A DNA stretch of 64,000 bases from Gemmatimonadota bacterium. Lineage in GTDB: Bacteria; Gemmatimonadota; Gemmatimonadetes; Gemmatimonadales; Gemmatimonadaceae. The notes under the pieces are model-generated. The model was not told the origin of the DNA, ran no database searches, and worked only from the letters and a program-made list of their open reading frames with translations. Made by a program: the position numbers and the translations under genes. Shown here in pieces: positions 8,290-53,699 of this stretch; within the stretch, counting starts at the first letter, position 1, and every line of letters begins with the position of its first letter. The stretch covers positions 243 through 64,242 of the forward strand of contig JACREJ010000025.1 of NCBI GenBank assembly GCA_016218305.1, read 5' to 3'.

Positions 8290-8933
8290 TCGGTCCCCGG
8301 CACCTTGACGCCGCGCGCCTTGGCGCGCGACCCGCGGAGAATGCGCAGGTTGTTCATGTCCGGGTCGGACACAAAGCCGACACCGCTCGCCTCGCGCCCT
8401 TCCTCGGTCAGCACGAAGGCGCTGTCCGAGGAGATCTGGTTGACGCGCGAGTCGAACTTGATTTGCTCGGTCTCGAGGCGGCGACCGTCGGCGGTGATGA
8501 TGACGACGTTCCCCCTGGCCTCGAGCACATTGTCGCGCGTCAGGTACCGTCCGGTGCGCGACGTGAGCACCGCGTCCTTGGCTCCCGCGGTGCTGTAGAA
8601 GATCGTGCGGACGACCTTCATGTCCATGCGCGTATTGTCGTCATAGAACAGCGCGGTATCGCTGAACACCTCGGCGCGGCGCAGGCCGCCTTCCGTGACC
8701 AGAGTGCGCGAGCCAAAGACCACCTGGTCGGCGTTCGGGTCCACCCCGCCCGCCCCTGCGGCGGTCTTCGGCGGCTTTGCCCGCTCGCAGGCCGCCAACG
8801 CGATGACGACGAGCACGGTCGCGACGCGAGCGAGGCGGCGAAACGTGACGGCGTGCTGCCGAGCGACTCGCGCACGGCTGTCCGCCGTCAGCCGCTCTGC
8901 CATCTGCCCTCTCCCATCTGCCATCTGCTTCAT
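8286..8933 (-). CDS. lptC: LptC-like LPS export protein (N-terminal TM anchor)
   Basis: ORF 8286..9989 trimmed to MKQMADGRGQMAERL... (ATG 8933..8931, ATGA overlap with the kdsD stop). TM helix VATVLVVIALAAC, then a LptC/OstA-like fold GNVVIITADGRRLETEQIKFD. An alternative start is at 8903. Confidence 0.65.
   Translation of the reverse strand: MKQMADGRGQMAERLTADSRARVARQHAVTFRRLARVATVLVVIALAACERAKPPKTAAGAGGVDPNADQVVFGSRTLVTEGGLRRAEVFSDTALFYDDNTRMDMKVVRTIFYSTAGAKDAVLTSRTGRYLTRDNVLEARGNVVIITADGRRLETEQIKFDSRVNQISSDSAFVLTEEGREASGVGFVSDPDMNNLRILRGSRAKARGVKVPGTE
8901..8928. repeat. Heptamer array (catctgc cctctcc catctgc catctgc) covering the first codons of lptC
   Basis: 4 x 7 nt. Here the G-rich strand (GCAGATG GCAGATG GGAGAGG GCAGATG) is the lptC sense strand and encodes KQMADGRGQM. 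Confidence 0.7.
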
Positions 8934-19303: not shown

Positions 19304-20149
19304 TCAGGCGGCGGGAAGGAAGACGAGCTTGCCCTGCGGGACCTTCCCCGCAAGCTCTAGACGACGGAAGAACTCGGAAAGTCCCTCGAGGTACTCGAGG
19401 CCGAGGCCATAATCGAGGCCGGCGAGGTACTCAAGGATGACGGGAGATGGGAGACGGGAGATGGGAGACGCCTCCTCAGCGATCGTCCCGAGGTTCGCGA
19501 GGCCCCACGCGCGGCTCTCCATCAGCGCGCCGTGCACCTGCAGGGCCTCACGCACGTTCACCTCACGGCGCGCCACCCAGACGGCGAAGACGAACGGAAG
19601 CCCCGTCCAGCGCTTCCACTCGGCGCCAAGGTCGTAGACGAACGGATAGTCGCGGCCGTGCGCGATGGCCACGGGATGTTCGCGATGCCGCAGCATCAGC
19701 GCCGCATCTCCAATGACCAGACGGGCCGCCACGGGCTCCTGGTCGCGCCGCAGGTCGTCGGCCTCCGTGTCGCCGGGCACAAAGGCGGGCTTCGCTTTCC
19801 AGACGTGCTCAAAGAGCAGCTCGAGCAGCGCCACGGACGTCATCGAGCTGCGGCTGACGAGCACGCGGGCCCCGTCCAGTTCGTGCGCGGGACGCGTCGA
19901 GAAGAGCATCACGCTGCGCACGTCGCCGTGGCATGAGATGGCCAGGTCCGGCAGCAGCAGGTACTTGCCCGCATCGCGCGCGTACTCGACCGCCGAGACG
20001 ACCGAGACGTCGATGGTGCCGTCGGCCATGCCGCGGTTCAGGACGGTCGGGACGCCGCTCACCAGCTCGGCGTCGAGCGTGACGATGCCGCGATCCACCG
20101 CGCCGTAAACCGGCGCGCAGTTGAGGTACGGGATGCGGCCGACGCGCAT
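19304..20149 (-). CDS. mqnA: Chorismate dehydratase MqnA
   Basis: ORF trimmed to MRVGRIPYLNCAPVY (ATG 20149..20147, 1-nt overlap TGATG with the upstream stop); 281 aa. Periplasmic-binding-protein-like fold signature typical of MqnA. Confidence 0.85.
   Translation of the reverse strand: MRVGRIPYLNCAPVYGAVDRGIVTLDAELVSGVPTVLNRGMADGTIDVSVVSAVEYARDAGKYLLLPDLAISCHGDVRSVMLFSTRPAHELDGARVLVSRSSMTSVALLELLFEHVWKAKPAFVPGDTEADDLRRDQEPVAARLVIGDAALMLRHREHPVAIAHGRDYPFVYDLGAEWKRWTGLPFVFAVWVARREVNVREALQVHGALMESRAWGLANLGTIAEEASPISRLPSPVILEYLAGLDYGLGLEYLEGLSEFFRRLELAGKVPQGKLVFLPAA
19443..19470. repeat. Perfect heptamer array (ggagatg ggagacg)x2 inside the mqnA coding region
   Basis: A 14-nt unit duplicated exactly, encoding ASPISRLPSPV on the minus strand. 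Four GGG tracts spaced by 4 nt. Confidence 0.85.
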
Positions 20150-22870: not shown

Positions 22871-23602
22871 CTACATCACCATCCCGCCATCCACCACCAG
22901 GACCTGCCCGGTGATGTAGGCGGCCAGATCCGAGGCCAGGAAGGCCACCGCCCCGGCAATGTCCTTGGGCTCCCCAAGGCGCCCCAGCGGAATCTGGGAG
23001 GAGAGCGCCGTCCGGGCCTCCTCGTTCAGCTGGGCGGTCATGTCGGTCTGGATGTACCCGGGGGCCACGGCGTTCACCAGGATGTTCCGCGACGACAACT
23101 CCTTGGCCGCCGCCTTGGTGAACCCGATCAGGCCGGCCTTGGAGGCGGCGTAGTTGGCCTGCCCCTTGTTGCCGACCAGCCCCACGACGCTGGTGATGTT
23201 GATGATCCGGCCCCAGCGGCGCTTCATCATGCCGCGCTGGGCGGCGCGCGTGGCCACGAAGGCCGACCGCAGGTTGGTGGCCATTACGGCGTCCCAGTCC
23301 TCGTCCTTCATGCGCGCCATCAGGTTGTCCTTCGTGATGCCCGCATTGTTGACCAGGATATCCAGCTGGCCGAAAGCGTCCTCGACGGTCTGCACCAGCA
23401 TCGTCACCGAGGCCGGATCGCTCACGTCACAGGCGAACCCGCGCGCTTCGCCCAGCTCCTCGGCGACCTTCTCCGCAGTGGCGAGGTCACGCCCCACGAC
23501 GGCCACGCGTGCACCGCATGCAATCAGTCCCTCGGCGATGGCGCGGCCGATGCCGCGCGTGGAGCCGGTGACGAGGGCGGTTCTTCCGGTGAGAGAGATC
23601 AT
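22871..23602 (-). CDS. fabG: 3-oxoacyl-ACP reductase
   Basis: ORF trimmed to [19 protein letters not shown] (ATG 23602). NNAG and YAASK SDR motifs; 243 aa. Confidence 0.95.
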
Positions 23603-23607
23603 GTGAG

Positions 23608-23635
23608 GCAGACGGGAGACGGGAGATGGGAGATG
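23608..23635. repeat. Heptamer array (gcagacg ggagacg ggagatg ggagatg) in the fabG leader
   Basis: 4 x 7 nt, starting 6 nt upstream of the fabG ATG. The mRNA strand is CCATCTCCCATCTCCCGTCTCCCGTCTGC. Confidence 0.8.
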
Positions 23636-23664
23636 GCGGGTACGACGGGTTTCGTGGCGCGACG

Positions 23665-24597
23665 CTACAACACTCCCAGCAGCGACTCCACCTCGGCCAC
23701 CGTGCCGCACGTCCGGGCGGCGTGGTTGGGCGCAAGGCGCTTGAGCAGCCCGGTGAGCACGTTGCCGGGCCCCATCTCGACGAAGGTAGCGCCGGGGTAC
23801 GCCGCCGCCATTGCCTGAATCACGCCGACCCAGCGCACCGGCGACGTGAGCTGGCGCAGCAGCAGGTCGCGTCCCGTCGCCGCGTCGGTCACGGGGGCAG
23901 CGGTGACGTTCGAGAAGACGGGCCAGGCCGGGGCGCTCCAGGCCGCCCGCCCCAGCGCCTCGCCCAGCCCGGCCTCGGCCGGCTGCATCAGGGGCGAGTG
24001 GAAGGCCCCGCTGACCTGCAAGCGCACTGCACGCTTGGCGCCGGCTGCCTTGGCCAGTTCCATGCCGCGCTCGACCCCGGCGACCTCGCCCGAAATGACC
24101 ACCTGCTCCAGCGCATTGTAGTTGGCGGGCACCACCACGCCGGCGGCGCTCGCCTCGGCGCAGATCTCGTCGATGGGACGCTGCAGTTCGCCGAGGATCG
24201 CGGCCATCGCGCCGGGCGTCTGGACGCCCGTTTCGTACATGAGCTCGCCGCGACGGCGCACGAGGCGCAGCGCATCGGCCAGCGGCAGCGCGCCCGCGGC
24301 GTGGTAGGCGGAGAACTCACCAAGTGAATGCCCGGCGGCGGCGACCACGTGTGATGCCGCGCGGTCCTTCACCACGGCCCACACGGCGGCGCCATGCGCA
24401 AGCAACGCGGGCTGCGCGTTGTGCGTCCGCGTCAGTTCCTCGGCCGGCCCCTCAAAGCAGAGCGTCGACAGTGGCGCCCCGAGCGCAGCATCCGCCTCCG
24501 CGAAGACGGCGCGTGCCGCGGGAAACTGCTCGGCGAGGTCCTTCGCCATGCCGGGCTTCTGCGAGCCCTGGCCCGGAAAGAGGAGGAGGAGTTGCAT
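23665..24597 (-). CDS. fabD: Malonyl CoA-ACP transacylase
   Basis: 310 aa. LFPGQGSQ and GHSLGE motifs. Confidence 0.95.
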   Translation of the reverse strand: MQLLLLFPGQGSQKPGMAKDLAEQFPAARAVFAEADAALGAPLSTLCFEGPAEELTRTHNAQPALLAHGAAVWAVVKDRAASHVVAAAGHSLGEFSAYHAAGALPLADALRLVRRRGELMYETGVQTPGAMAAILGELQRPIDEICAEASAAGVVVPANYNALEQVVISGEVAGVERGMELAKAAGAKRAVRLQVSGAFHSPLMQPAEAGLGEALGRAAWSAPAWPVFSNVTAAPVTDAATGRDLLLRQLTSPVRWVGVIQAMAAAYPGATFVEMGPGNVLTGLLKRLAPNHAARTCGTVAEVESLLGVL

Positions 24598-27407: not shown

Positions 27408-27553
27408 CTGAACCACCACCACGAGGAGCGAAGGGCGCGAAGGGCCGCGAAGCAGGTCCTACTAATGACCCAATTCGCCGTACCTGTCGCGCCCGACCAG
27501 GCGTCTCCCCCGCCTTCGCGCCCCGTCGTGCCCTTCGACCTTCGCGGTTGAAG
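27408..27553. repeat. REP/MITE-like palindromic element, copy A (imperfect ~40-nt inverted arms around a ~60-nt core)
   Basis: Left arm ctgaaccaccaccacgaggagcgaagggcgcgaagggccgcgaag. Right arm ccttcgcgccccgtcgtgcccttcgaccttcgcggttgaag, which ends on the base before the ndk stop codon. Confidence 0.7.
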
Positions 27554-28007: not shown

Positions 28008-28100
28008 CCACCACCAAGGTCGAAGGGCGCGAAGGGCCGCGAAGGCTGCCGTGCCATGCACGTCCTTCGTGTCCCTTCGCGTCCTTCGTCCTTCGCGGTA
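28008..28100. repeat. REP/MITE-like palindromic element, copy B
   Basis: cccaccaccaaggtcgaagggcgcgaagggccgcgaagg, an 18-nt loop, then ccttcgtgtcccttcgcgtccttcgtccttcgcggta. It lies between the sucD stop and the ndk start. Confidence 0.7.
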
Positions 28101-30126: not shown

Positions 30127-30197
30127 GGGAACTCCGTGGGAGATGTCCGCGGCGCCGTCTGGCGCCGGTCGAAAACAACGTGCGAAATTTACCGCAG

Positions 30198-30218
30198 GGA
30201 GAGGGGCGACGGGAGTGC
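30198..30218. repeat. Degenerate G-rich heptamer array (ggagagg ggcgacg ggagtgc)
   Basis: Three 7-nt units related to the GGAGAYG family, in the sucC leader / UPF0182 3' region. Confidence 0.4.
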
Positions 30219-42064: not shown

Positions 42065-43590
42065 GCGGTCACCCCCGCTCCGGCCGCCATCTGGCCCTTG
42101 AGTCCAAGCGAGTCATAGCTCATTCCGCTGAAGGCGGCCTCGGCCTTGGCCATCGCGGTAAAGACCGCCTCGGCCGAGTCGTACGCGCCGGGCTTCCCGG
42201 CTGCCGCGGCGAGACCCGCGAGCGCCATCCAGCTGGCGCGCGCCATCCCGGGCGCGGGGCGTGCCTGCAGGTAGCGCTGCGTGCGCCCGCGCAGGTTCGT
42301 GAAGGTCCCTTCCTCTTCCGCGAAATTCGCGATCGGGAGGAGGATGGCGCCGGCCGGCAGCCCCGTGGGCGCCACCGTGCCGATGAAGATCACCGCGCTG
42401 GCGCCGGACAGCGCCGACGTGTCGAGTCCGTCGCAGTCGTCGCCCGCGATCACCACCACCTTGCCCGCGCCCGCGAGCGGCTGGTCGGCGCGGCTGAAGC
42501 CGAGCATCTCCGCACCCGTCGCATTCGGGGCGCGGTCGGCGCGCAGCGCGAGGTCCTTGACGCCCGGCAGCGGCGCCTCGGCCCCCTTGGCGACGCGGAA
42601 CTTGCCCGTCCCCGCCGCCTGCTTGAGCAGCCAGAGCGCTTCATTGGACATGGATGCGCTGGCCACGACGTGCGCGCTGGCGCCCTTGAGCGCGGCGCCG
42701 GCGGCGGACAGGGCCGCCTCCCACGAAGCCAGCTTCCCTGCAACGACCGGCGTCTCGAGCCGATCATCGCGGTTGATCCACTGGTAGTTGAGGCGGCCCT
42801 CGTCGCACATGTAGTACTGGTTGACGTCGGCGTTGGACCGCGGCTTCATCCGCACCACGTTCCCGTCGCGCGTCTCCAGCGTGACGTTGCAGCCCTGCGA
42901 GCAGTTGGGGCAGACCGACGCCGTGCGGTCGAGCTCCCACGCGCGTGCCTTGTTCAGGAAGTCCTTGCTGACCAGCGCGCCCACCGGGCACAGGTCGATC
43001 ACGTTGGCCGCCCAGGGGTGCGTCAGGTCGTGGTCGGGCGCGATGCCGATGCGCGCGCGATCGCCGCGCTCCTCCACACAGAGCGCCTCGTCACCGGCGA
43101 CATCGTCCATGAAGCGAACGCAGCGCGTGCAGAGGATGCAGCGGTTGGTGACGTACATGACGTCGCCGCCGAAGTCCTCGGCCGGGTTGAAGCGCTTCGG
43201 CTCGTGATACCGCGAGTCGGCGCGCCCTTCCTGGAAGGTGTAGTCCTGCAGCTCGCACTCGCCGGCCTGGTCGCAGATCGGGCAGTCGAGCGGATGGTTG
43301 ATGAGGAGCAGCTCGAGCACGCCCTTGCGGGCGTCGAGCGCCTTCTGGCTGTAGACATGCACCACCTGTCCCTCACCGACGGTCGTCGCGCAGGACGGCG
43401 CCAGCTTCGGGAACTTCTCCACTTCCACGAGGCACATGCGGCAGACGCCCGCGATCTTGAGCCCGGGGTGGTAGCAGTAGTGCGGGATGAGCACCCCGGC
43501 GGTCTTGGCCGCCTCGAGGATGGTCGTCCCCTCGGGGACGCTGACCGCGCGTCCCTCGATGGTCAGGGTGATGAGCTTCGGGTCGGTCAT
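42061..43590 (-). CDS. nuoG: NADH-quinone oxidoreductase subunit G (short form)
   Basis: ORF trimmed to MTDPKLITLTIEGRAV (ATG 43590, 1-nt overlap with the nuoF stop). 2Fe-2S and 4Fe-4S Cys motifs (CYHPGLKIAGVCRMC; HPLDCPICDQAGEC; CILCTRCVRF; CPVGAL); 509 aa. Confidence 0.92.
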   Translation of the reverse strand: MTDPKLITLTIEGRAVSVPEGTTILEAAKTAGVLIPHYCYHPGLKIAGVCRMCLVEVEKFPKLAPSCATTVGEGQVVHVYSQKALDARKGVLELLLINHPLDCPICDQAGECELQDYTFQEGRADSRYHEPKRFNPAEDFGGDVMYVTNRCILCTRCVRFMDDVAGDEALCVEERGDRARIGIAPDHDLTHPWAANVIDLCPVGALVSKDFLNKARAWELDRTASVCPNCSQGCNVTLETRDGNVVRMKPRSNADVNQYYMCDEGRLNYQWINRDDRLETPVVAGKLASWEAALSAAGAALKGASAHVVASASMSNEALWLLKQAAGTGKFRVAKGAEAPLPGVKDLALRADRAPNATGAEMLGFSRADQPLAGAGKVVVIAGDDCDGLDTSALSGASAVIFIGTVAPTGLPAGAILLPIANFAEEEGTFTNLRGRTQRYLQARPAPGMARASWMALAGLAAAAGKPGAYDSAEAVFTAMAKAEAAFSGMSYDSLGLKGQMAAGAGVTA

Positions 43591-44900
43591 CAGGCCGTCA
43601 CCGCCACGGTGGATGAGCGCTTGCCGGAGATCAGCGCCTCGAACTCGCCGCGGAAGCGCGTAATGCCGCTGCACACGGGCGCGCCGCACGAGTCGCTGAG
43701 CACGCAGATGGTCTTGCCGGTCATGTTCTCGGTCAGCTCGAAGATCGTGTCGAGGTCCTCGTACGTCCCCTGACCCGCCACGATGCGCTCGAGGATCTTG
43801 GTCATCCACGCGGTGCCTTCGCGGCACTGCGTGCACTGCGCGCAGCTCTCGTGCGCGTAGAACCGCGCGAGCCGGGCGAGCTGCTTGGGCATGGACTGCG
43901 CGTCGTCGAAGATGATGACGCCGCCGGAGCCCAGCATCGTGCCGAACTCCATGAAGCCCTCATAGTCCATCTTGACCTGCTCGGCTTCCTCGATCGTGAT
44001 CACCGGCACCGACGACCCGCCGGGGATGATCGCCTTGAACTTCCGGCCCGGCAGCGGTCCGCCGCACAGGTCGTACAGGAATTCCTTGAACGAGAAGCCC
44101 ATCGGCACTTCGTAGTTGCCGGGGCGCGCCACGTTGCCGCAGACCGAGAAGAGCTTGCTGCCGGTGCTCTTGGGGCTGCCGAGGCACATCGCCTTGTACC
44201 ACTCGGCGCCGTTGTTGAGGATGTGCGGCACCGCGGCCAGGGTCTCGACGTTGTTGACGGTCGTCGGCATGCCGAAGACGCCCGCCACCGCCGGGAAGGG
44301 CGGCTTGATGCGCGGATTGCCGCGGCGCCCCTCGATGGAGTTCATGAGGGCGGTCTCTTCGCCGCAGATGTACGCGCCGGCGCCGCGATGCACCCACATG
44401 TTGATCGTCTTGCCCGAGCCGCAGGCGTTGGGGCCGATCATCCCGGCCGCGCGCGCCTCGTCCAGCGCCTTCTCCATGACGGCGATGGGCTCGGTGAACT
44501 CGCCGCGGATGTAGATGTAGGTCGTCTCGGCACCGATTGCGTGCGCGGCAATCGCGCATCCCTCGATGAGCTGGTGCGGCGTCCACCGCATGATCTCGCG
44601 GTCCTTGAACGTTCCCGGCTCGGACTCGTCGGCGTTGCAGCACAGGTAGTGCGGCTTGCCGTCGTTCAGCTTCATGAACGACCACTTGAGGCCGGTCGGG
44701 AAGCCGGCGCCGCCGCGACCGCGCAGCCCGGATTCCTTGACGACGTTCTGGATGGCCACCGGGTCGGTGGCCAGCGCCTGCGGCAGCGCCTTATAGCCGC
44801 CGCGCGCCTTCCACCCCTCCAGCGTGCGTGCCTCGGGGTCGCCGAAGTACTTGCTGAGGATCGGTGTTTCGCGCGGATGGCTCTTGTGTGGATAGCCCAT
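43590..44900 (-). CDS. nuoF: NADH-quinone oxidoreductase subunit F
   Basis: 436 aa. GRGGAGFPTGLKW, the FMN/NADH site and a SCAQCTQCREG cluster. Confidence 0.97.
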   Translation of the reverse strand: MGYPHKSHPRETPILSKYFGDPEARTLEGWKARGGYKALPQALATDPVAIQNVVKESGLRGRGGAGFPTGLKWSFMKLNDGKPHYLCCNADESEPGTFKDREIMRWTPHQLIEGCAIAAHAIGAETTYIYIRGEFTEPIAVMEKALDEARAAGMIGPNACGSGKTINMWVHRGAGAYICGEETALMNSIEGRRGNPRIKPPFPAVAGVFGMPTTVNNVETLAAVPHILNNGAEWYKAMCLGSPKSTGSKLFSVCGNVARPGNYEVPMGFSFKEFLYDLCGGPLPGRKFKAIIPGGSSVPVITIEEAEQVKMDYEGFMEFGTMLGSGGVIIFDDAQSMPKQLARLARFYAHESCAQCTQCREGTAWMTKILERIVAGQGTYEDLDTIFELTENMTGKTICVLSDSCGAPVCSGITRFRGEFEALISGKRSSTVAVTA

Positions 44901-44903
44901 AGT

Positions 44904-44931
44904 TCAGACGGGAGACGGGTGACGGGAGACT
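44904..44931. repeat. G-rich heptamer array (tcagacg ggagacg ggtgacg ggagact) in the nuoF leader
   Basis: 4 x 7 nt, 3 nt upstream of the nuoF ATG. The mRNA strand is C/T-rich (AGTCTCCCGTCACCCGTCTCCCGTCTGA). Confidence 0.75.
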
Positions 44932-44946
44932 TGCCCTACGAGGTAC

Positions 44947-44990
44947 TGTTGTCTCTCTGTTGTTTCTCTGTTGTCTCTCTGTTGTTTCTC
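44947..44990 (-). repeat. 11-nt tandem repeat array (GAGARACAACA x4) starting directly after the nuoE stop
   Basis: Plus strand tgttgtctctc tgttgtttctc tgttgtctctc tgttgtttctc. About 40% GC in a ~67% GC context. Confidence 0.9.
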
Positions 44991-45542
44991 TTACGCGTAC
45001 TGCTTGAGTATCTCCGGCACCTTCTCCACGCTCACGCTGTCGATGAAGTCGTTGTTGATCATGATTGGCGTCGCAAACCCGCACGCCCCTAAGCACTCGA
45101 CTTCTATCACCGTGTACTTGCCGTCAGCCGACGTCAGGCCGAGCTCACCGCAGCCGGTCTTCTCGAGGAAGGCCTTCACCACGTCCTCGGCGCCCATGCA
45201 ATTGCAGCAGGACGTCGTGCAGACCTGGATGAAGTACTTCCCCACTGGATGCTGGTGGTACATGGTGTAGAACGTCACCACGCCCTTGACGTAGGCGGCG
45301 GTGAGGCCGAGCACGTCGCCGACTTCCTTCATCGCGTGCTCGCTGACCCAGCCGCGCTCGTCCTGCACGATCCACAGCGCGGGCAGCAAGCCGGCCTGCT
45401 TGGTGGGATAGCGCGTCAGGATGTCGTCGAGCTTGGCGCGCGGCGCCGACCCGGCCGTGAAGACCGGCACATACGGTTCGTCGTGGTGCCCGTGCGCTGG
45501 CTGCGCTACTGCCCCGCCGGATGCTGATGGTCCGTGGCTCAT
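44991..45542 (-). CDS. nuoE: NADH-quinone oxidoreductase subunit E
   Basis: 183 aa. 2Fe-2S motif CTTSCCNCMG...CLGACG. Confidence 0.95.
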   Translation of the reverse strand: MSHGPSASGGAVAQPAHGHHDEPYVPVFTAGSAPRAKLDDILTRYPTKQAGLLPALWIVQDERGWVSEHAMKEVGDVLGLTAAYVKGVVTFYTMYHQHPVGKYFIQVCTTSCCNCMGAEDVVKAFLEKTGCGELGLTSADGKYTVIEVECLGACGFATPIMINNDFIDSVSVEKVPEILKQYA

Positions 45543-45559
45543 GCGTCCCCTCGCCCGTC

Positions 45560-45603
45560 TGTTGTCTCTCGGTTGCTTCTCTGTTGTCTCTCTGTTGTCT
45601 CTC
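45560..45603 (-). repeat. 11-nt tandem repeat array (GAGAGACAACA-type x4) starting directly after the nuoD stop
   Basis: Plus strand tgttgtctctc ggttgcttctc tgttgtctctc tgttgtctctc. It abuts the nuoD TGA (45606..45604) and ends 17 nt before the nuoE ATG. Confidence 0.9.
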
Positions 45604-46911
45604 TCACCGATCGATCTCTCCCATCACGATGTCGATCGACGCATTGATGGCAATCACGTCGGATAGCAGGTGCCCCTCGACCATCTTGGGAATGGCCGAG
45701 AGGTTCACGAACGACGGGGGCCGGATGCGCCAGCGCACCGGCTTGGCCGTGCCGTCCGACACCATGTAGTAGCCCTTCTCCCCCTTGGGGGCCTCGACGG
45801 CCACGTACGACTCGCCGATGGCCGGGCGCGGTCCTTCCATCACGTTCTTGAAGTGATGGATCATGCTCTCCATCTCGCTCGTCGCCTTGTGCTTGGGCGG
45901 CAGGATGACGCGCGGGTCGTCCACGTTCACCGGGCCGTCGGGAAGGCGGGCGATGGCCTGCTCAATGATGCGCACGGACTGCCGCATCTCCTCCATGCGC
46001 ACGAGGTAGCGGTCGTACACGTCGCCGTGCACGCCCACCGGCACCTCAAAGTCGTACGTCTCGTAGTCGAGATACGGGAAGTCCTTGCGGACGTCGTAGT
46101 CCACGCCCGACGCGCGCAGCATCGGGCCCGAGAGGCCGTAGTTGAGCGCCTCCTCGGGGTTCATCACGCCCAGCCCCACCGTGCGGCCCACCCAGATGCC
46201 GTTGCGCGTCAGCATGCGGTCGCACTCGCTCAGCGTCTTCGGGAACGTGCGGACGAAGGCCTTGAGCCCGTCGAGCCAGCCGTCGGGAATGTCGGCGGCC
46301 ATCCCGCCCACGCGCGAGGCGCTCGTCGTGAGGCGCGCGCCCACCCACCCCTCGAACAGGTTGTAGATGTTCTCGCGCTCCTGGAACGACCACAGGAACG
46401 GCGTGAAGGCGCCGATGTCGATGCCCGTCGTCCCCATCCAGACCAGGTGCGACGCAATGCGCGACAGCTCCATGCCGATGACGCGCAGCACGGTGCAGCG
46501 CGGCGTGATCTCGATGCCGAACAGCTTCTCGGCGCCGAGGGAGAAGGCGATGTTGTTGCCGACGCAGTTCAGGTAGTCGTCGCGGTCGGTCCAGGGAATG
46601 ATCTGGTTGTACTGGCGGTACTCGCCGATCTTCTCGAAGCCGCAATGCAGGTAGCCGATGTGCGGGATGCACCGCACCACCGTCTCGCCGTCGAGCTCGA
46701 GCACGAGGCGGAGCACGCCGTGCGTCGCCGGATGCTGCGGCCCGATGTTGATGAGCATGTGCTCGCCCTCGAGCTCCGGCTCGAGCGCGGGCGGCGCCTG
46801 CAGGGCGAGGCCGCCGGTGTCGCCGGCGACGAGCGGAATGCGCTGCGGCTTGCCGTCGGCGCCGAGGCCGGTGGTCGAGAGTTCGACTTCAATCGTGCGC
46901 TTGGTGGCCAT
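45604..46911 (-). CDS. nuoD: NADH-quinone oxidoreductase subunit D
   Basis: 435 aa. NIGPQHPATHGVLRL motif, with SD-like GGGAGAA upstream. Confidence 0.97.
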   Translation of the reverse strand: MATKRTIEVELSTTGLGADGKPQRIPLVAGDTGGLALQAPPALEPELEGEHMLINIGPQHPATHGVLRLVLELDGETVVRCIPHIGYLHCGFEKIGEYRQYNQIIPWTDRDDYLNCVGNNIAFSLGAEKLFGIEITPRCTVLRVIGMELSRIASHLVWMGTTGIDIGAFTPFLWSFQERENIYNLFEGWVGARLTTSASRVGGMAADIPDGWLDGLKAFVRTFPKTLSECDRMLTRNGIWVGRTVGLGVMNPEEALNYGLSGPMLRASGVDYDVRKDFPYLDYETYDFEVPVGVHGDVYDRYLVRMEEMRQSVRIIEQAIARLPDGPVNVDDPRVILPPKHKATSEMESMIHHFKNVMEGPRPAIGESYVAVEAPKGEKGYYMVSDGTAKPVRWRIRPPSFVNLSAIPKMVEGHLLSDVIAINASIDIVMGEIDR

Positions 46912-49476: not shown

Positions 49477-49540
49477 CCACCACGAAGTACGAAGGGCGCG
49501 AAGGGGCGCGATGGGCTCGCTTGTGCGGCGGGCCCTTTCC
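49477..49540. repeat. REP/MITE-like element, copy C (one well-conserved arm, degenerate partner)
   Basis: ccaccacgaagtacgaagggcgcgaaggggcgcgatggg ... gggccctttcc, starting 11 nt after the dcd TAG. Confidence 0.55.
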
Positions 49541-53601: not shown

Positions 53602-53699
53602 CTTCAACCACGAAGACCGAAGGGCGCGAAGGGGCGCGAAGAAGGGCTCACCTAGGCGGTGAGCCCTTCGCGCCCTTCATTCCCTTCGCGCCTTCGCGA
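53602..53699. repeat. REP/MITE-like palindromic element, copy D (most symmetric copy)
   Basis: cttcaaccacgaagaccgaagggcgcgaaggggcgcgaagaagggctcacc-taggc-ggtgagcccttcgcgcccttcattcccttcgcgccttcgcgat. The inner 9-bp stem is perfect. Confidence 0.75.

Follow-up and report, generated by a model that had tools for sequence, protein, structure and literature searches.

Polar G-rich heptamer arrays at gene boundaries of a Gemmatimonadota genome and their possible role as leaders of fabG and nuoF

Introduction

REP and BIME sequences of enterobacteria and pseudomonads are imperfect palindromes of about 35 nt and are tied to a RAYT gene. Tandem heptamers, the STRR repeats, were reportedly described in cyanobacteria by Mazel et al. 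in 1990. According to the summary in PMC4679880, the survey of Mrazek et al. 2007 ranked heptamers first among the long SSRs (5-11 nt) of many bacteria, and polymerase slippage was proposed as the cause of such repeats.

Two heptamer classes with a fixed relation to genes have been reported. Rehm et al. 2015 (PLoS One, PMC4692102) described intergenically enriched G-rich heptamers, GGGAATC in Xanthomonas and GGGGA(C/T)T in Nostoc. Irrespective of gene orientation, these repeats are closest to the ORF on their 5' side and so occupy the non-coding strand before starts and the coding strand after stops (PMC4692102). About four units are preferred, inverted pairs occur occasionally, and the same loci carry repeats of varying length and sequence in relatives (PMC4692102). 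The repeats are not linked to mobile elements, and oligonucleotides of the Xanthomonas repeat form G-quadruplexes (G4) in vitro (PMC4692102). The second class, TAACTGA, is described by MacGregor 2015 (PMC4679880) in marine Beggiatoaceae, some cyanobacteria and Bacteroidetes. According to this account, the repeats lie a few nt before starts, apparently replacing the Shine-Dalgarno (SD) site, and S1 or cold-shock proteins were proposed as their readers (PMC4679880). The cold-shock protein Bs-CspB is described as binding pyrimidine-rich heptamers with the consensus GTCTTTG/T (PMC1904285), with one protein per heptamer as summarised in PMC4679880. Our literature search on repeats in Gemmatimonas or Gemmatimonadetes returned nothing relevant.

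Here, we analyzed G-rich heptamer arrays in 64,000 nt of a Gemmatimonadota genome (the whole stretch of DNA, hereafter the window), in its source genome and in relatives.

Results

Heptamer arrays precede fabG and nuoF

The G-rich arrays that the initial annotation placed before fabG and nuoF are real; they occupy positions 23607-23634 and 44904-44930 and end 4 and 3 nt from the ATG, respectively. The two loci comprise the following features:

23607..23634, minus strand: four-unit heptamer array in the fabD-fabG gap (evidence: sequence, gap fold, array kept in 13/17 species)
22871..23602, minus strand: fabG coding sequence, ATG at 23602..23600, no SD site, N-terminus MISLTG
23665..24597, minus strand: fabD coding sequence, stop codon TAG at 23667..23665, no G-rich partner arm after the stop
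44904..44930, minus strand: heptamer array with three full units and an incomplete terminal one (GUCUGA), ending 3 nt from the nuoF ATG; tract present in 12/12 species
43590..44900, minus strand: nuoF coding sequence, ATG at 44900..44898, no SD site
44946..44991, minus strand: purine-rich 11-nt array (AGAGARACAAC x4) from the nuoE stop onward; member of a second repeat family with the polarity described below
45558..45604, minus strand: second purine-rich 11-nt array, directly after the nuoD stop

On the plus strand, the fabG array reads GGCAGAC GGGAGAC GGGAGAT GGGAGAT, and the fabG mRNA (minus strand) carries AUCUCCC AUCUCCC GUCUCCC GUCUGCC, followed by ucac and the AUG. The nuoF array reads tcagac GGGAGAC GGGTGAC GGGAGAC on the plus strand and GUCUCCC GUCACCC GUCUCCC GUCUGA in the mRNA. 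Both start codons are secure, since the N-termini MISLTG (fabG) and MGYPHKSHPRET (nuoF) are conserved across 17 and 12 species of the genus, respectively.

A stable hairpin or an intrinsic terminator was considered at both loci and rejected, as neither gap folds better than its shuffles. The fabD-fabG gap is unstructured (z=0.02), and the nuoE-nuoF gap folds worse than shuffled sequences (z=+2.27) because it is filled by non-complementary purine-only and pyrimidine-only arrays.

Further copies in the window

Searching the window for three GGNNGAY units with up to one mismatch yielded 8 matches against 0.31 expected; none of 100 shuffles reached 8. Copies and other tandem repeats outside the two leaders are:

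30197..30217, minus strand: degenerate three-unit array GGGAGAG GGGCGAC GGGAGTG, 17 nt after the stop of the upstream gene and 71 nt before the sucC GTG (30126)
8896..8928, minus strand: intergenic copy absent from the initial annotation, sense strand G-rich (GGCAGAU GGGAGAG GGCAGAU GGCAGAG)
19435..19469, minus strand: in-frame copy within a coding sequence, encoding ...ASPISRLPSPVIL...
27428-27452, 28021-28095, 49490-49516 and 53618-53698: 9-10-nt tandem repeats (CGAAGGGSC / GCCCTTCG)

The degenerate array at 30197..30217 had been described as a copy in the sucC leader. The array exists, but it is not adjacent to the start, lying 71 nt upstream of it, and sucC carries its own GGAG SD site. 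The array at 8896..8928 begins 7 nt after a TGA stop (8932..8930) and overlaps possible starts of the next gene. This stretch (8896-8933) holds in-frame AUGs, each preceded by GGGAG, for an LptC-like gene (MKQMADGRGQMAERL...). The array itself may supply both the SD site and the start codon of this gene, whose true start is ambiguous.

Two copies match the G4 pattern: positions 23614-23640 upstream of fabG, as had been stated initially, with four GGG tracts and loops of 4, 4 and 7 nt, and positions 19442-19469 inside the coding sequence with four tracts and 4-nt loops. The nuoF copy has three GGG tracts only and does not conform to the pattern.

Elsewhere in the source genome (G000), further in-frame arrays occur in long coding sequences (G000:C5:20908, C56:7996, C63:16469, C115:18316 and C8:14483) and encode peptides such as SPISRLPSPV and DGRREMGDGR, and four more arrays overlap gene C-termini, where the ORF reads into the array. 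The 9-10-nt repeats (CGAAGGGSC, complement GCCCTTCG) are intergenic and flank ndk and other genes. Rfam covariance models gave no matches at the gathering score across the whole window.

A genome-wide family with a preference for four units

The source genome is a 2.0-Mb assembly of 116 contigs with 69% GC, in which a simple, crude codon-bias model called 1736 genes (91% coding, 9% intergenic). Counting strictly (at least three GGNNGAY units), we found 98 arrays, compared with 0-1 in shuffled genomes; 85 of the 98 are intergenic. After merging, about 92 arrays remain in the 2.0 Mb, 81 of them intergenic. Together with the 8 matches in the window, these counts bear out the dispersed family that had been suspected from the window alone. 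The fabG and nuoF arrays are two members of this genome-wide family and not a feature peculiar to the two genes.

Among intergenic tandem repeats, period 7 is dominant, with 44 perfect arrays of at least three copies versus at most 6 for any other period, and lag 7 gives the highest autocorrelation. The most frequent unit is GGGAGAT (42%), followed by GGGAGAC, GGCAGAT, GGTAGAC/T, GGTGGAC and others; 61% of units begin with GGG, and 39% have no run of three G. Four units are the most frequent array length (3, 4 and 5 units: 34, 40 and 9 arrays), a preference that also holds in arrays that are not composed of GGG units throughout (13, 21 and 5).

A heptamer array lies within 150 nt of 10 of the 232 contig ends (among them ends of C1, C6, C26, C39, C51, C56, C91 and C106), and two contig breaks of the relative G015 coincide with such arrays. 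Heptamer arrays fragment short-read assemblies, so their true copy number exceeds the one counted; they can also mislead the calling of start codons.

Arrays are oriented relative to the adjacent gene

From the 5' side of the G-rich strand, the median distance to the next gene boundary is 10 nt (within 12 nt in 48/78 cases), compared with 90 nt from the 3' side; in 60 cases the 5' boundary is the nearer one, in 9 the 3' boundary. The initial annotation had located the family immediately upstream of start codons. This applies to 27 intergenic arrays, where start codons rest on the crude gene caller with an orthologue check for fabG and nuoF; 33 others abut a stop codon, and one follows a tRNA gene. 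The G-rich strand thus runs 5' to 3' away from the adjacent gene, and the mRNA is accordingly C-rich before starts and G-rich after stops. In co-directional gaps, the G arm is near the stop in 19 cases and near the start in none, and the C arm is near the start in 18 and near the stop in none. The unit closest to the gene is typically GGCAGAY, or CWGAY/GTGAY. Downstream of the tRNA-Gln gene, a G arm of 12 units begins 3 nt after the 3' end, which shows the polarity rule to be independent of translation termination.

The same rule extends to all repeat families: within 10 nt of a stop, 97/110 arrays have a purine-rich sense strand (47 of them are copies of the 11-mer AGAGAGACAAC), and within 10 nt of a start 33/41 arrays are pyrimidine-rich. 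In the mean of all genes, too, leaders show an excess of C (GC skew -0.2 to -0.3) and trailers an excess of purines. The 11-nt family (AGAGAGACAAC / AGAGAAACAAC), with its 47 purine-rich copies after stops and few pyrimidine-rich ones before starts, has the polarity of the heptamers, and its core GAGAGAC is one base off GGGAGAC.

Where a gap holds both arms, their order is G..C in 16/16 cases and the arms form hairpins, with very stable predicted folds (one gap of 105 nt reaches -87 kcal/mol). About 60% of the array-bearing gaps have a single arm only. Within the genome, arms of the same gap were no more alike than arms of different gaps (p=0.30), a comparison whose power is low given the prevalence of GGGAGAT.

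Genes of the four-helix-bundle family TIGR02436 (23S rRNA intervening-sequence protein family; E=1.8e-20) were observed in the loops of repeat-armed modules. Five copies exist in the 2 Mb, with loci at G000:C101:26176-26760 (outside the window), G000:C19:15403-15720 and G000:C87:2437-2646. The module at C101 has heptamer G and C arms, that at C19 has purine and pyrimidine arms of the 11-mer plus a GC hairpin, and that at C87 has arms of a 13-mer, AATCCCAATCGCC.

Start-adjacent arrays coincide with the lack of a Shine-Dalgarno site

In 27 genes, a C arm ends within 25 nt of the start, and an SD site (GGAG, GAGG or AGGA at -20..-4) was found in 0/27. This agrees with the earlier description of the mRNA strand as C/U-rich, with RUCUCCC repeats sitting at the place of the RBS. 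The 16S 3' end has the standard anti-SD (GGAUCACCUCCUUA), GGAG peaks at -15..-9, and only about a third (~32%) of genes have an SD site genome-wide. The predicted MFE of the region -30..+20 is -3.1 kcal/mol for array leaders versus -12.8 for SD genes and -12.2 for other genes (p about 5e-14 and 5e-17, respectively); given the G-poor composition, this lack of structure is almost automatic and hence no proof of selection for it.

The C-rich arrays before starts contain no AUG, GUG or UUG, whereas the opposite orientation (GGGAGAUG) would give each unit an AUG with an SD-like GGAG 7 nt ahead of it. Base pairing between the C arm and 16S rRNA was also considered, and no GGNAGAY-type tract was found in the 3' 980 nt of the 16S gene (C81; the 5' part is missing from the assembly).

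Position is conserved in relatives while units turn over

Among the other genomes of the genus, 12/18 contain the motif (GGGAGAY)3, compared with 0/12 genomes from other genera of the order. Degenerate GGNNGAY x4 arrays occur in 24/151 genomes and 16/81 genera of the phylum, all of the same class, with lineage-specific units such as GGCTGAC, GGATGAT and GGTTGAC.

At nuoF, a pyrimidine-rich tract of heptamer periodicity ends 3-5 nt before the ATG in 12/12 species, with 2-5 copies of GTCTCCC, GTCTGCC, GTCTACC, ATCTGTC or GTCATCC. The fabG leader has a G-poor heptamer tract in 13/17 species, some with the unrelated units CCAACCA, ACTATCA or GTCCAAC; the array is absent in some species (G005, G010), and G005 has GAGG instead. 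The initial annotation had named leaders of relatives lacking the arrays as an outcome that would speak against it; the arrays were retained in 12/12 nuoF and 13/17 fabG leaders. A partner arm was found at neither fabD-fabG nor nuoE-nuoF in any of the 12-17 species examined, yet the lone C arm was retained.

In other genera, nuoE and nuoF overlap in most cases (TAATG or TGATG), which indicates that the repeat-built gap is derived and that arrays are not needed in principle; in G059, nuoF has an SD site. The nuoF array is thus one of three alternative solutions, the others being stop/start overlap and SD. Independent arrays of the same polarity also occur in a few genera outside this one, as CGCTTCC x4 before an ATG in G051 and as paired arms in G019 and G021.

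Paired arms occupy the convergent tdk gap in 9/16 species; the two arms share their unit type within each species, but the type varies from species to species. Arrays are missing from this gap in some species, and five have almost no gap. Compared with G015 (90-96% DNA identity), position and polarity are kept in 7/7 mapped array-bearing gaps, and unit number or type differs in every one of these. At C74:22599 and C38:40837, both arms changed together. Whole-unit changes between such close relatives agree with the earlier view of the arrays as slippage-prone, and a "seeded repeat" that grew by slippage is the likely origin of the arrays.

As a separate observation, no alignment of G000 with G015 (contig C45; window 23640-23700) is possible over the last ~8 codons of fabD and the entire fabD-fabG gap. 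Identity is 93% in the flanks and about 98% where fabG resumes. This region is a local replacement hotspot, in which G000 and G015 each keep four heptamer units before the ATG.

Discussion

The comparisons demonstrate family membership, polarity, the lack of SD sites and of structure in the leaders, and positional conservation with sequence turnover. To account for them, we propose, with about even confidence, that the arrays are slippage-made polar heptamer microsatellites whose lone C-rich arm would act as a structure-free, SD-independent leader. Replication slippage would create and constantly remodel the GGNNGAY arrays, mostly as GGGAGAT. The lone C-rich arm, as at fabG and nuoF, could itself be the ribosome-loading region of the gene and could support SD-independent initiation by holding the start codon single-stranded. 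A single-strand-binding OB-fold protein of the S1 or cold-shock type, with a footprint of about 7 nt, may help at the C arm; by its letters, the CspB heptamer GTCTTTG/T resembles the array unit GUCUCCC. Cold-shock (CSD) genes number 2-5 per genome in five relatives of the genus, and a search of the incomplete source assembly found none. Paired arms would form a long hairpin, probably an extension of a terminator, or a processing (RNase III-type) or stabilising structure. We infer from sequence that translation benefits, that a protein reads the arm and that the hairpin has a role. This leader model leaves the obligatory G arms after stops and the G..C order in convergent gaps unaccounted for.

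A further-reaching possibility, which we regard as doubtful, is that the arrays are a signal read unit by unit by a protein with a 7-nt footprint. They would then form a dedicated SD-independent system before starts and would mark or process transcripts after stops. Candidate readers would be an OB-fold protein of the cold-shock or S1 type, bound to the C-rich arm of the RNA, or the four-helix-bundle "intervening-sequence" proteins. If true, such a system would operate in Gemmatimonadota and, by extension, in Xanthomonas and cyanobacteria, and the G-then-C polarity would be part of the code.

A purely neutral origin is a serious rival to the leader model, even if we judge it rather unlikely. 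The arrays would then be by-products of slippage, with position and polarity reflecting what selection tolerates, for example no SD+AUG decoys (GGGAGAUG) near the true start. The rapid turnover of unit type and number between genomes of 90-96% identity argues for this, as do the presence or absence of tdk-gap arrays among species (five with almost no gap), the in-frame copies within coding sequences, and the nuoE/nuoF overlap outside the genus, which, taken as ancestral, makes the repeat gap dispensable. It would also fit the rank of heptamers as commonest long SSR and the slippage proposed as their cause (Mrazek 2007, via PMC4679880). However, position is kept in 12/12 cases (nuoF) and 7/7 cases (G015) while the flanking spacer diverges, and the four-unit peak (34, 40 and 9 arrays) is not predicted by simple slippage. 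Decoy avoidance covers the C arm before starts, but neither the 19:0 G arms after stops nor the 16/16 G..C order, convergent gaps included. The initial annotation and Rehm et al. considered a role for a G-quadruplex; in this reading, a G-quadruplex on the G-rich template strand, or an i-motif on the C-rich strand, would modulate the start of transcription or translation. The stretches 23614-23640 and 19442-19469 have the G3N1-7 x4 pattern, as do 44/92 arrays overall, and four units are the commonest length, as in Xanthomonas with its in-vitro G4 oligonucleotides (PMC4692102). As a conserved property, the G-quadruplex nevertheless fails: the pattern is found in 6/27 start-adjacent leaders, the nuoF copy has three GGG tracts, 39% of units have GG only, and orthologous leaders swap GGG units for GGC, GGT or G-run-free ones (ACTATCA, CCAACCA). 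Moreover, the four-unit preference persists in arrays that are not all GGG (13, 21 and 5), and the purine-rich 11-mer family has the same polarity without G runs. GGG tracts are thus often lost in relatives and the quadruplex is not the conserved feature, so that we hold this reading to be improbable. The genome thereby contributes an argument against G4, as polarity, placement and the four-unit preference survive the loss of G3 tracts.

It is also improbable, in our estimate, that each array is or was one stem arm of a hairpin (an RNase III site, terminator extension or mRNA stabiliser), with lone arms as remnants. The 16 gaps with both arms and very stable folds (-87 kcal/mol for the 105-nt gap), the paired arms of matched unit type within species in the tdk gap (9/16), and the joint change of both arms at C74:22599 and C38:40837 (G000 vs G015) all point in this direction. 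So does the presence of genes of the 23S rRNA intervening-sequence protein family (four-helix bundle) in module loops; rRNA intervening sequences are excised by RNase III. Against it, the fabD-fabG and nuoE-nuoF gaps are unstructured and show no partner arm in 12-17 species while the lone C arm persists, and about 60% of array-bearing gaps are single-armed; the arm matching within the genome (p=0.30) had no power to decide. A mobile origin had also been suggested. In this reading, the arrays would be termini or relics of a REP/RAYT- or MITE-type element that targets gene boundaries; it is already largely refuted, and we assign it only a very slight chance. Species do differ in whether a whole module lies between a given pair of genes, the terminal unit next to the gene is specific and recurrent (GGCAGAY, or CWGAY/GTGAY), and GGTAGAY units contain GTAG, the conserved REP tetranucleotide. 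Yet the Y1 transposase (PF01797) of a REP/RAYT system is absent from all four genomes of the genus that were searched, array-rich or related (G000, G015, G001 and G002), although G015 is itself array-rich, and unit types differ between loci of one genome. A MITE was rejected as well: the 14 spacers between paired arms share no common sequence or core and no cross-matches, leaving only the heptamer arms common to the copies, and no target-site duplications were seen.

Several bacterial groups that are not related to each other carry polar heptamer repeats in abundance. Here, an array is the only upstream region of dozens of essential genes, nuoF and fabG among them, which makes SD-independent, structure-free ribosome loading directly testable.

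With respect to known systems, the arrays share with REP/BIME elements the abundance of extragenic palindromes after stops, and REPs can stabilise the upstream mRNA. In contrast, REPs are single palindromes and not tandem heptamers, and RAYT is lacking in four genomes of the genus. As in the surveys of long SSRs and STRRs, as far as these are summarised, heptanucleotides are commonest, mostly non-coding and patchy among lineages; unlike the present arrays, these surveys are descriptive in the summarised form, without gene-relative polarity or a role in translation initiation. The TAACTGA repeats of MacGregor 2015 are also heptameric direct repeats before starts of housekeeping genes, apparently in place of SD. 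Their unit, in contrast to GGNNGAY, is AT-rich, contains stop codons and has one fixed sequence across phyla; they lie mostly upstream of starts, and the stop-abutting class and paired hairpins present here are not described in the parts of that account drawn on here. Membership of the TAACTGA family was therefore rejected, the units here being GGNNGAY and the resemblance functional only.

The GGNNGAY arrays belong to the already described class of polar G-rich heptamers. Like the repeats of Rehm et al., they are tandem 7-nt G-rich units with strong intergenic enrichment (85/98 arrays in 9% of the genome) and the same polarity (60 vs 9 cases; median 10 vs 90 nt). They likewise prefer four units, form occasional inverted pairs, are not linked to mobile elements, and keep the same loci in relatives with variation in length and sequence (7/7 vs G015; nuoF 12/12). 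They differ in that many unit variants coexist in one genome and 39% of units lack a G3 tract, so that G4 potential is not general, in that arrays end 1-12 nt from start codons and replace SD, and in that an 11-nt purine-rich family follows the same polarity rule. What is new to the class is the phylum, Gemmatimonadota, and the unit, GGNNGAY.
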